From a virus (taxonomy: Duplodnaviria; Heunggongvirae; Uroviricota; Caudoviricetes): a stretch of 9,648 bases of DNA. The translations under genes and the position numbers were made by a program. Numbering within the stretch: the stretch's first letter is position 1; each line of letters starts with the position of its first letter. The notes beneath the pieces are model-generated. The model saw nothing but the letters and a program-made list of their open reading frames with translations. It made no database searches and was not told where the DNA came from. The stretch lies in the IMG/VR virus record IMGVR_UViG_2609459830_000010, one strand, 5' to 3'. This document shows positions 7,126 to 8,183 of this stretch, in pieces.

Positions 7126-8183
7126 CAGAGCGTGAACTGTCCATTATCCGTGCGCTGGGTGAAGAATTCTCCACGGTGCTGGCGGATTTACAGCGCACAT
7201 TTGAGGGGAAGATGGCCTCGCAGGCACAAGCGTTTGAAGAGAAACTGACTTCCCTGTCGGCGGTATTACAGAAGCATGTGACGGTGGATGAGGTGCGTCC
7301 GGTTCTGCAGGCGATGGTGGATGACGCTGTGGGGGCCATTTCGGTACCGCGTGATGGTCGTGATTATGATCCGGATGTACTGCAGCAGGCGGTGAATGAT
7401 GCGGTTGCGAATATTCCGGTACCGGCGGACGGCAAAAGTCTCACCCCGGATGATGTGCGTCCGATGCTTGAGCAGATGGTGGCGGAGGCAGTGGGCCATA
7501 TTCCAGCTCCCCGCGATGGTCGTGATTACGATCCGGAAGTACTGAAGCAGGCGGTGAATGATGCGGTCGGGAGAATTCCGGTACCGGCGGACGGCAAAAG
7601 TATCACCCCCGATGATGTGCGTCCGATGCTTGAGCAGATGGTGAAAGAGGCTGTAAGCCATATTCCCGTTCCGCGTGATGGTCGTGACTACGATCCCGAT
7701 GTTCTGCGGAAGGCGGTTCTGGAGGCGGTGAATGCCCTGCCGGCTCCGCAGGACGGGCGTGATGCCACGGCACTGGAAGTGCTCCCCGCCATTGACGATC
7801 AAAAATCCTTTCCCCGGGGCACGTATGCCACACACCTTGGAGGACTCTGGCGGGCGTATGAAAAAACGCACGGGATGCGGGGATGGGAATGCCTGGTTGA
7901 CGGGGTGGCGGATATTGACGTCAGTATGACGGGTGAGCGGTTGTTCTCTGTGGTGATCCGGCAGAGCAGTGGCCAGTGTACGGAAAAAACATTTTCCCTG
8001 CCGGTGATGCTCTACCGCGGAGTGTTCAGAGCCGGTGAAACCTACCACCCCGGCGATACGGTGACGTGGGGGGGCTCGCTGTGGCACTGCAACAGTATGA
8101 CCGCCGATAAACCGGGGGATGCGCATGCATCTGGCTGGACGCTGGCTGCCAAACGGGGACGGGATGCTGGAGGCGGAAAATGA
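7122..8183 (+). CDS. Repeat-containing head-module protein of unknown function: helical N-terminus, three tandem 54-aa repeats, C-terminal carbohydrate-binding-like module
   Basis: ATG 7122 overlaps the portal stop (ATGA); its stop overlaps the next start (ATGA at 8180-8183). Three in-frame 54-codon repeats begin at about residues 58, 112 and 166. The C-terminal region contains Y-HPGDTVTWGGSLWHCNSMTAD...SGW, resembling the CBM5/12 pattern Y..G..VTYNG..Y.C...H.S..GW. Confidence 0.75.
   Translation: MTERELSIIRALGEEFSTVLADLQRTFEGKMASQAQAFEEKLTSLSAVLQKHVTVDEVRPVLQAMVDDAVGAISVPRDGRDYDPDVLQQAVNDAVANIPVPADGKSLTPDDVRPMLEQMVAEAVGHIPAPRDGRDYDPEVLKQAVNDAVGRIPVPADGKSITPDDVRPMLEQMVKEAVSHIPVPRDGRDYDPDVLRKAVLEAVNALPAPQDGRDATALEVLPAIDDQKSFPRGTYATHLGGLWRAYEKTHGMRGWECLVDGVADIDVSMTGERLFSVVIRQSSGQCTEKTFSLPVMLYRGVFRAGETYHPGDTVTWGGSLWHCNSMTADKPGDAHASGWTLAAKRGRDAGGGK
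7287..7775 (+). repeat. Three tandem, in-frame 162-bp coding repeats, each internally made of two related 27-codon half-units
   Basis: Units start near 7293, 7455 and 7617 (each begins with GTG coding Val of VRPxLEQMV). Units 2 and 3 share the identical 33-nt stretch gatgatgtgcgtccgatgcttgagcagatggtg; units 1 and 2 share attccggtaccggcggacggcaaaagt. The remainder is highly similar with synonymous and conservative changes. Confidence 0.85.

Follow-up and report, generated by a model that had tools for sequence, protein, structure and literature searches.

The window analysed here is a stretch of 9,648 nucleotides from a tailed virus (IMG/VR record IMGVR_UViG_2609459830_000010), and the subject of this analysis is gene X, an open reading frame (ORF) of 353 residues that lies between the portal gene and a gp6-like head-tail adaptor gene. 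Judged from its sequence, the C-terminus of X is a genuine CBM5/12-like module (CBM, carbohydrate-binding module), and the protein that carries it probably has a fibre-like architecture. X belongs to a large, uncharacterised family which, by sequence similarity, extends across the prophages of alpha-, beta- and gamma-proteobacteria. We tentatively favour the reading in which X forms a trimeric, low-copy fibre at the portal vertex whose double CBM5/12-like head recognises an invariant ligand and serves in accessory adhesion or positioning. The features of X are as follows.

7122-8183, + strand: gene X, 353 aa (ORF list); its start ATG overlaps the portal stop (ATGA)
7128-7268, + strand: long N-terminal alpha-helix, residues 3-49 (full-length AlphaFold model, pLDDT 61-69)
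7269-7751, + strand: stalk, residues ~50-210 (AlphaFold secondary structure and repeats in the translation)
7353-7717, + strand: tandem repeat of 162 nt (54 aa), 2.3 copies, 87% matches (TRF)
7752-8180, + strand: beta-rich C-terminal head, residues 211-353, ~145 aa (AlphaFold model, conservation table, profile scan)
7806-7907, + strand: first Trp-rich sub-module of the head, residues 229-262, SFPRGTYATHLGGLWRAYEKTHGMRGWECLVDGV, with weak similarity to the CBM5/12 module
8007-8159, + strand: CBM5/12-like module, residues 296-346, which includes 8013-8147

The initial annotation had placed a carbohydrate-binding module at 8013-8147, and given the ORF at 7122-8183 (+) these coordinates correspond exactly to residues 298-342 (YRGVFRAGETYHPGDTVTWGGSLWHCNSMTADKPGDAHASGWTLA). 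Profile and structure searches against carbohydrate-binding families, which it had proposed as a check, returned significant similarity to CBM5/12 at both levels. Using Pfam, CBM_5_12 (PF02839) was the top and only notable match of X; the full-length protein scored 18.9 bits (E 0.0015), and the domain on its own reached 22.1-22.3 bits (E 1.3-1.6e-4). The precomputed PF02839 labels on homologues proved faint and family members were rescored directly; PF02839 was matched by 15 of 16 close relatives (best E 5.5e-8) and 27 of 38 diverse relatives (best E 1.4e-7). As the best of these relatives exceed the gathering score by extrapolation, the family as a whole qualifies as CBM5/12 homologous. When a profile of the 55-residue segment was searched against the PDB, the best chitin-binding domain (ChBD) match was that of P. 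furiosus (2RTS, 2.8e-4), with the CBMs of Vibrio chitin-oligosaccharide deacetylases (~4e-4), the B. circulans ChiA1 ChBD (1ED7, 5e-3) and then ChiC and ChiB also found. Alignment of the segment to the ChiA1 chitin-binding domain using hhalign gave P 6e-5, and the 1ED7 match provides independent support. The modelled structure was in agreement, as the top Foldseek matches of the head in the PDB were Cis13, the ChiC ChBD, 2RTS and ChiB, with target-normalised TM scores of 0.55-0.69 for isolated CBM structures. The module itself is predicted to form the small three-stranded antiparallel beta fold with an aromatic and glycine core that is expected of CBM5/12. The initial annotation had also argued from a CBM5/12-like spacing of aromatic and glycine residues. 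The similarity to the module held up, but the tail of the proposed pattern ('H.S..GW') was out of register, as W339 corresponded to ChiA1 W696, the structural Trp in the last strand, and not to W687.

The head probably comprises two CBM5/12-like units in tandem, one clear and the other degenerate, which may be a diverged duplicate. When its N-terminal and C-terminal halves were compared using hhalign they aligned weakly in the expected register (P 0.028), and Foldseek aligned 117-121 head columns to the double-CBM region of the Vibrio chitin deacetylases. Residues H238, G241, W243, G254, W255 and C257 of the first sub-module were invariant, and 11 aromatic positions were conserved within the 145-aa head, including the first aromatic of the module (F, Y or W at 302). 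Each Trp-rich sub-module carries one cysteine, C257 (7890-7892, 'WEC') and C323 (8088-8090, 'WHC'). Both were invariant in 18-19 closer relatives and were found in 134 and 110 of 146 diverse representatives, respectively; they might be disulfide-bonded or have a structural role in common. In alphaproteobacterial homologues (loci L119-L134) only the last CBM5/12 module was present (query residues ~83-145), and in place of the first half of the head stood repeats with a motif of the 'GVGLAGALIDRDGNLVVT' type, in many cases following long collagen runs.

Upstream of the head, the repeat stalk proposed in the initial annotation was borne out by the 162-nt tandem repeat and by a predicted helix-linker structure, in which six helices of 13-17 aa are joined by 10-12-aa 'IPxPxDGxD' linkers in 27/54-aa repeats. 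The length of X varied in steps of whole repeats among near-identical E. coli prophages, with proteins of 245, 299, 353, 407, 461, 515 and 569 aa found in a set made up of 80 IMG/VR E. coli loci plus phage records. The N-terminal helix shows an amphipathic pattern that recurs across homologues, with N-terminal identity of 43% within Enterobacterales and ~20% outside. The X of the window has no G-X-Y runs, only 'DGRD' and 'DGKS' turns, whereas in many homologues the corresponding position holds 5-49 triplets; 71 of 147 representatives of 50%-identity clusters had at least 5 consecutive triplets in the stalk, with a maximum of 49. Neighbours of X in BFVD were likewise labelled 'Collagen triple helix repeat', ChiC_BD or CBM5/12 phage proteins. 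As homologues carry these long collagen runs, X is likely a trimeric fibre. The inspected Klebsiella contigs end within the X gene and the public protein entries there are 'partial'; the 162-nt repeat is a plausible cause of these contig breaks.

The window derives from a lambdoid, long-tailed prophage of E. coli that is of the Stx1/Stx2c (Shiga toxin 1/2c; Pankowvirus-like) type, and comprises its head-morphogenesis module. The genes around X are listed below.

671-1036: HNH endonuclease
1327-1890: small terminase
1887-3548: large terminase
3612-5549: prohead protease-major capsid fusion
5761-7125, + strand: portal gene, 454 aa (Pfam Phage_portal, E 2.5e-79)
8180-8506, + strand: gp6-like head-tail adaptor gene (Pfam Phage_connect_1), the conserved downstream neighbour, whose start overlaps the X stop
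8516-8866: head-closure protein
8863-9309: HK97 gp10-like protein

The head-module location claimed for X was confirmed using 47 species-level loci from Enterobacterales, Pseudomonas, Marinobacter, Burkholderiales and Alphaproteobacteria, covering the three proteobacterial classes. The order large terminase, protease/major capsid protein (MCP), portal, X, gp6-like adaptor, head closure and gp10 was kept in 44 of the 47, and identical gene order was seen in Klebsiella, Salmonella and metagenomic examples. In 44 of 47 loci the X start and the portal stop overlapped, by 1-16 nt, with 25 of these loci showing the 4-nt ATGA form, and the X stop overlapped the called adaptor start in all but one of the loci in which an adaptor was found, by 4 nt in 29. 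These overlaps suggest that X is co-expressed with 12-copy neck proteins and is not a stray tail-fibre gene. Immediately before X the portal protein carries a C-terminal extension of ~70 aa past its Pfam domain (6907-7122, residues ~383-454) that is low-complexity and rich in Ser, Gly, Asp and Glu and terminates in a conserved amphipathic 'AMFRGILRK' segment. This tail is a candidate docking site for the N-terminal helix of X.

Conservation of the head was then compared to that of its neighbours. In phages of Pseudomonas-type hosts the median identity to the window protein was 58% for the X head as compared to 54% for MCP, 52% for portal and 40% for adaptor, and in those of Burkholderiales it was 51% as compared to 41%, 44% and 35%. 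Across phages of Enterobacterales, Pseudomonas, Burkholderiales and Alphaproteobacteria the X head was conserved on par with MCP and portal, and by these sequence comparisons it is among the slowest-evolving parts of the whole module. Receptor-binding tips normally show the reverse pattern, with a conserved anchor and a variable distal domain. That the head is conserved unlike a typical receptor-binding tip argues for an invariant ligand, or for a need for trimer registration.

This pattern also bears on the alternative offered in the initial annotation, that X is a misplaced tail-fibre-like receptor-binding gene. The structural neighbours of X do include tail fibres and tailspikes (Pa193 gp47 and those of phages 7-7-1, A-1(L) and phiAB6), but the slot in the head module is fixed over three proteobacterial classes, the distal domain is the most conserved part of X and not the most variable, and a complete lambda-like tail-tip/J module lies downstream. 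In the related phage phi330, OmpC is the receptor and its recognition was assigned to the J-like tail tip (PMC12502783). We therefore rejected this alternative, which we regard as extremely improbable.

Gene X is in some genomes fused to the portal gene. The X start in the window is preceded by a short homopolymer.

7106-7110, + strand: G5 homopolymer in a Shine-Dalgarno-like purine run upstream of X (junction 7096-7125)

Among 74 E. coli IMG/VR loci the run was G5 in 52, with portal and X as separate overlapping ORFs, and G6 in 22, where the two are joined in frame in an ORF of ~810-1030 aa. PHROG 2271 is explained by this G6 allele, as it fuses portal and X. Other genera carry AGAGGA at the position of the G run. 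An independent portal::X fusion of 1237 aa (P0142-type) was found in a distant lineage on at least 4 contigs. Outside E. coli, fusion was found in 1 of 146 other 50%-identity representatives and in none of the 47 species-level loci. The fusions are consistent with two proteins acting together, and they may represent non-functional alleles or undergo trimming during maturation. We also considered a programmed -1 frameshift at G_GGG_AUA that would join portal and X; the G6 allele does encode exactly the slip product, but the idea was unsupported. The offset of the X start from the portal frame was lineage-dependent (+2 in 37 loci, +1 in 10), the G run was specific to E. coli and corresponded to an AGAGGA Shine-Dalgarno-like element elsewhere, and the downstream RNA was without unusual structure (z -1.26).

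The fusions raise the question of which side of the capsid shell X occupies. X could be an internal, portal-tethered minor head protein, bound or, in the fusion alleles, covalently joined to the portal C-terminal tail and perhaps ejected before or with the DNA, its conserved head binding peptidoglycan or DNA. The gene directly follows the portal gene and is translationally coupled to it, it is fused in frame to the portal C-terminus in two lineages, and its head is conserved like core head proteins whatever the host, as expected for a ligand that is peptidoglycan or a phage part. The ligands of CBM5/12, beta-1,4-linked polymers of N-acetylglucosamine (GlcNAc) or glucose, are also chemically near the peptidoglycan backbone. 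We nevertheless consider this reading unlikely, as hypervariable length and collagen-like stalks typify external fibres and are without known precedent inside heads, no Phage_Mu_F (at E<=0.1) or other internal-protein domain was found in X using Pfam, and the fusions are rare outside E. coli and may be defective or trimmed by the prohead protease. A variant, in which X is a portal-tethered trimeric fibre inside the capsid with a head that binds the packaged DNA end or, after ejection via the tail, peptidoglycan, and in which the G tract acts as a 1-nt switch between free and fused forms, is in our judgement quite improbable. Should such a fibre prove to be internal, it would represent a novel type of head protein, an internal or pilot class that in many phages is collagen-like.

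In the reading that we favour, X would instead belong at the portal vertex, the head-tail junction, of an HK97-type siphophage head, in low copy. The N-terminal helix would be the likely anchor and oligomerisation segment, and the 54-aa repeat stalk would act as a spacer of freely variable length, its place taken by a collagen triple helix in many homologues. The ~145-aa head, with one clear and one degenerate CBM5/12-like beta module, would form the functional end. As the head evolves slowly and has lost the chitin-stacking aromatics, it would most likely recognise an invariant ligand via a non-canonical surface, and it may also nucleate trimerisation. Candidate ligands would be either a glycan conserved in the envelope (such as a polymer of the GlcNAc type, peptidoglycan or the lipopolysaccharide core) or another part of the virion, and a strain-specific polysaccharide would be an unlikely one. 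The ligand must be common to hosts as unlike as E. coli, Pseudomonas, Variovorax and Rhizobium. The role of X would be accessory, in reversible adhesion or positioning, with primary receptor recognition left to the J-type tail tip. The existence of the gene and its family, its synteny, the repeat polymorphism, the homology and fold of the CBM5/12-like module and the relative conservation were observed directly, whereas we infer each of the trimeric state, the presence in the virion, the attachment at the portal vertex, the external exposure and the ligand.

Several findings weigh against this reading. The X of the window did not reach the PF02839 gathering score of 26.2, either as the whole protein or as the domain alone, and the stalk was modelled at low confidence (pLDDT ~45 in the full-length model). 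The residues that stack on chitin or cellulose are W687 of ChiA1 in CBM12 and a Trp-Trp or Trp-x-Tyr pair after strand 3 in CBM5. The equivalent of W687 is absent from X in the hhalign alignment, as it sits in a 4-residue 'LAGW' insertion that X is without, and the positions of 2RTS 'KYW' and Chi60 'QWW' are taken by N324-S325-M326 in X and by N/D-E-x in the family, which are polar or acidic. Overall, the ligand-binding aromatics of CBM5 and CBM12 align to N324, S325 or T327 of X or to a gap. The first aromatic is the only one kept (F302; F, Y or W in the family). In the Anabaena injection system, Cis13 employs the same fold in the baseplate in a purely structural capacity. As to location, the portal C-terminus to our knowledge points into the capsid in all portal structures, and functional portal::X fusions would thus place X inside the head. 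Lastly, no proteomics or imaging of X in virions was found, the mass spectrometry peptide maps of PMC12502783 being of podophages only.

The same residue losses run counter to the proposal in the initial annotation that X binds host surface polysaccharide. The stacking aromatics are replaced or deleted, and the conservation of the head is the opposite of what a host-specific polysaccharide binder would show. They also favour a reading in which the head binds no ligand and is a folding or trimerisation nucleus, a protein-protein module that docks X to the capsid, neck or tail of the phage itself, or both. Collagen-type stalks need a globular registration domain, the conservation of the head tracks that of MCP and portal, Cis13 employs the fold structurally, and the foldon and whisker of T4 fibritin offer an analogue. 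A purely structural role seems unlikely to us, however, as the 11 aromatic positions, including the F/Y/W at 302, are retained in 145 aa, and many phage fibres bear CBM5/12 units at their receptor-binding tips.

The extended, length-variable and portal-adjacent character of X would also suit an assembly factor or a determinant of head shape or length, a portal-based core or ruler that maturation would remove or cleave. Long-tailed particles with elongated heads have been reported for the Stx1 phage H19-B/H19J, for an Stx2c phage and for PhiESI. PhiESI shares 97% identity over 51% of its genome with FSL SP-016, a shared part that may include the head module. Across the first 37 genomes the length of X correlated with genome size (Spearman rho 0.47, p 0.003), but the correlation was gone after 16 more records were added, with rho -0.01 (p 0.92) over 53 complete phage records. 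The added X lengths were mostly inferred from BLAST match geometry, with three verified on sequence. The 461-aa form of X was found in the smallest genomes (~44 kb), and the Trp-rich beta head is unlike known scaffolds. As the head of phi330 was described as isometric, ~55 nm (PMC12502783), an elongated head has no firm link to the module either. Taken with these results, we consider a ruler or assembly role very improbable.

As compared to known CBM5 and CBM12 modules (ChiA1 1ED7, S. griseus ChiC 2D49, P. furiosus 2RTS, S. marcescens ChiB and E. chrysanthemi EGZ 1AIW), the module of X is of similar size (~45-50 aa), has the same Y-x-x-G-D-x-V-T-[WY]-x-G-x-x-[WY] core and final-strand Trp and is predicted to fold alike. 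It differs in having no ligand-stacking aromatics, in forming only part of a 145-aa head that also includes a second, degenerate copy and an inserted beta-sheet, and in not being joined to a carbohydrate-active enzyme; Pfam found no catalytic domain in X. CAZy defines a CBM as having demonstrated carbohydrate binding and belonging to a carbohydrate-active enzyme. Of all solved structures, the one that matched the whole domain best in sequence was Cis13 (All3316, PDB 7B5H) of the thylakoid-anchored contractile injection system of Anabaena, with E 0.015, then 6.5e-4 using the segment profile, and it was also the top Foldseek match. It resembles X in having a CBM5/12-like unit within a phage-like machine, but Cis13, which belongs to the baseplate and carries a transmembrane anchor (PMC8894136), lacks both a stalk and a head-module context. 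A PDB sequence search found no solved homologue structure beyond the CBM segment.

In concept X would be comparable to phi29 gp8.5, T4 fibritin (wac), T4 Hoc, the RcGTA head spikes and the P68 head fibres, all of them dispensable-looking, elongated oligomeric appendages of the head or neck module, and like fibritin it combines a conserved terminal domain with a central rod of variable length. PDB sequence and fold searches found no similarity of X to any of these. X further differs from them in its position between portal and adaptor and in its helix-linker or collagen stalk. SPP1 gp7 and Mu F are similar to X in that its gene immediately follows the portal gene and is occasionally fused to it, implying low copy, but they are globular whereas X is fibrous and repeat-rich with a beta head, and fusion of X is rare. 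The initial annotation had called the architecture of X unrelated to known glycan-binding capsid decoration proteins, which was half right, as proteins that combine collagen with CBM5/12 are common among phage fibres. The collagen plus CBM5/12 (ChiC_BD) proteins of uncultured tailed phages share the trimeric collagen-type rod and the CBM5/12-like units; they are mostly annotated as tail fibre or minor tail proteins, whereas the X family is defined by its specific 145-aa head and its portal-adaptor slot.

The family of X is widespread. Of 1.84 billion cluster representatives (50%-identity clusters) scanned using HMMER with a profile of the C-terminal 145 aa, 7961 matched at E<=1e-3, and tightening the cut-off to E<=1e-30 left 733. 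Among the 150 best matches the domain lay at, or a few tens of residues from, the C-terminus of proteins mostly 235-480 aa in length, and the family architecture was constant, with an N-terminal helix, a hypervariable stalk and a C-terminal beta-rich head. The sole exception among these 150 was a protein of 4341 aa (P0266) with 34 tandem CBM5/12-like units of the 'GxWxxxxxYxxxDxVxxxGxxW' type, which shows that very large phage-like fibres are built up from repeats of the module. X itself matched PHROG 1289 (E 6e-180), and 91 deposited phage genomes carry a gene with 90-94% DNA identity to it; almost all of these phages are Stx1a, Stx2c or Stx2 converting. In the Stx2 phage EH2246 a coding sequence of identical extent is annotated. 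A query made up of the 3' end of the portal gene and X found matches in 1247 of 5426 complete E. coli genomes, covering at least 80% of the query length in 560. In phi330 (vB_EcoS_phi330, PV189401.1, locus L140, 2675-4053), which is plaque-forming, the annotation divides X into two ORFs immediately ahead of the CBM module, and the gp10-like and major tail genes of this phage are likewise split. These splits are probably errors of a manually assembled Sanger genome; were the split in X real, the CBM module would be dispensable on K-12.

Public labels for X were 'phage portal protein', 'portal protein B' or hypothetical in many of the phage, RefSeq and protein records inspected, and PGAP joins portal and X as one 'frameshifted' pseudogene. 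No Phage_portal domain or any portal-family match was found in X using Pfam, and the true portal is the upstream ORF; X is not a portal protein. The wrong label is explained by the fused alleles together with the PGAP treatment of portal plus X as one frameshifted gene. Some public entries for relatives of X already carry the name 'carbohydrate binding domain protein'. NCBIfam returned no family match for X, and the literature search found no characterised member, solved structure or dedicated paper for the family. The family is large and is part of the head module of the long-tailed Stx1/Stx2c phages by which Shiga toxin genes are disseminated. If X were established as a separate fibre whose head is CBM5/12-like, this would correct the widespread 'portal protein' and pseudogene annotation and define an accessory structure at the portal vertex.

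Other genes of the window were also inspected. The ORF at 3612-5549 is a single 645-aa reading frame that combines the prohead protease (Peptidase_S78) with the HK97-type MCP, as compared to separate protease and MCP genes in some distant relatives. Between the capsid and portal genes lies a conserved 73-aa ORF (5594-5815, +) that overlaps the portal start by 55 nt; it had no Pfam match and is hypothetical in the annotation of relatives. Upstream of the HNH and terminase genes, the ORF at 1-297 (+), cut by the window start, carries a TonB C-terminal domain (E 3.9e-15), and a 66-aa ORF at 429-629 (-) matched DUF3950 (E 4.3e-20). Both of these look like moron-type cargo.

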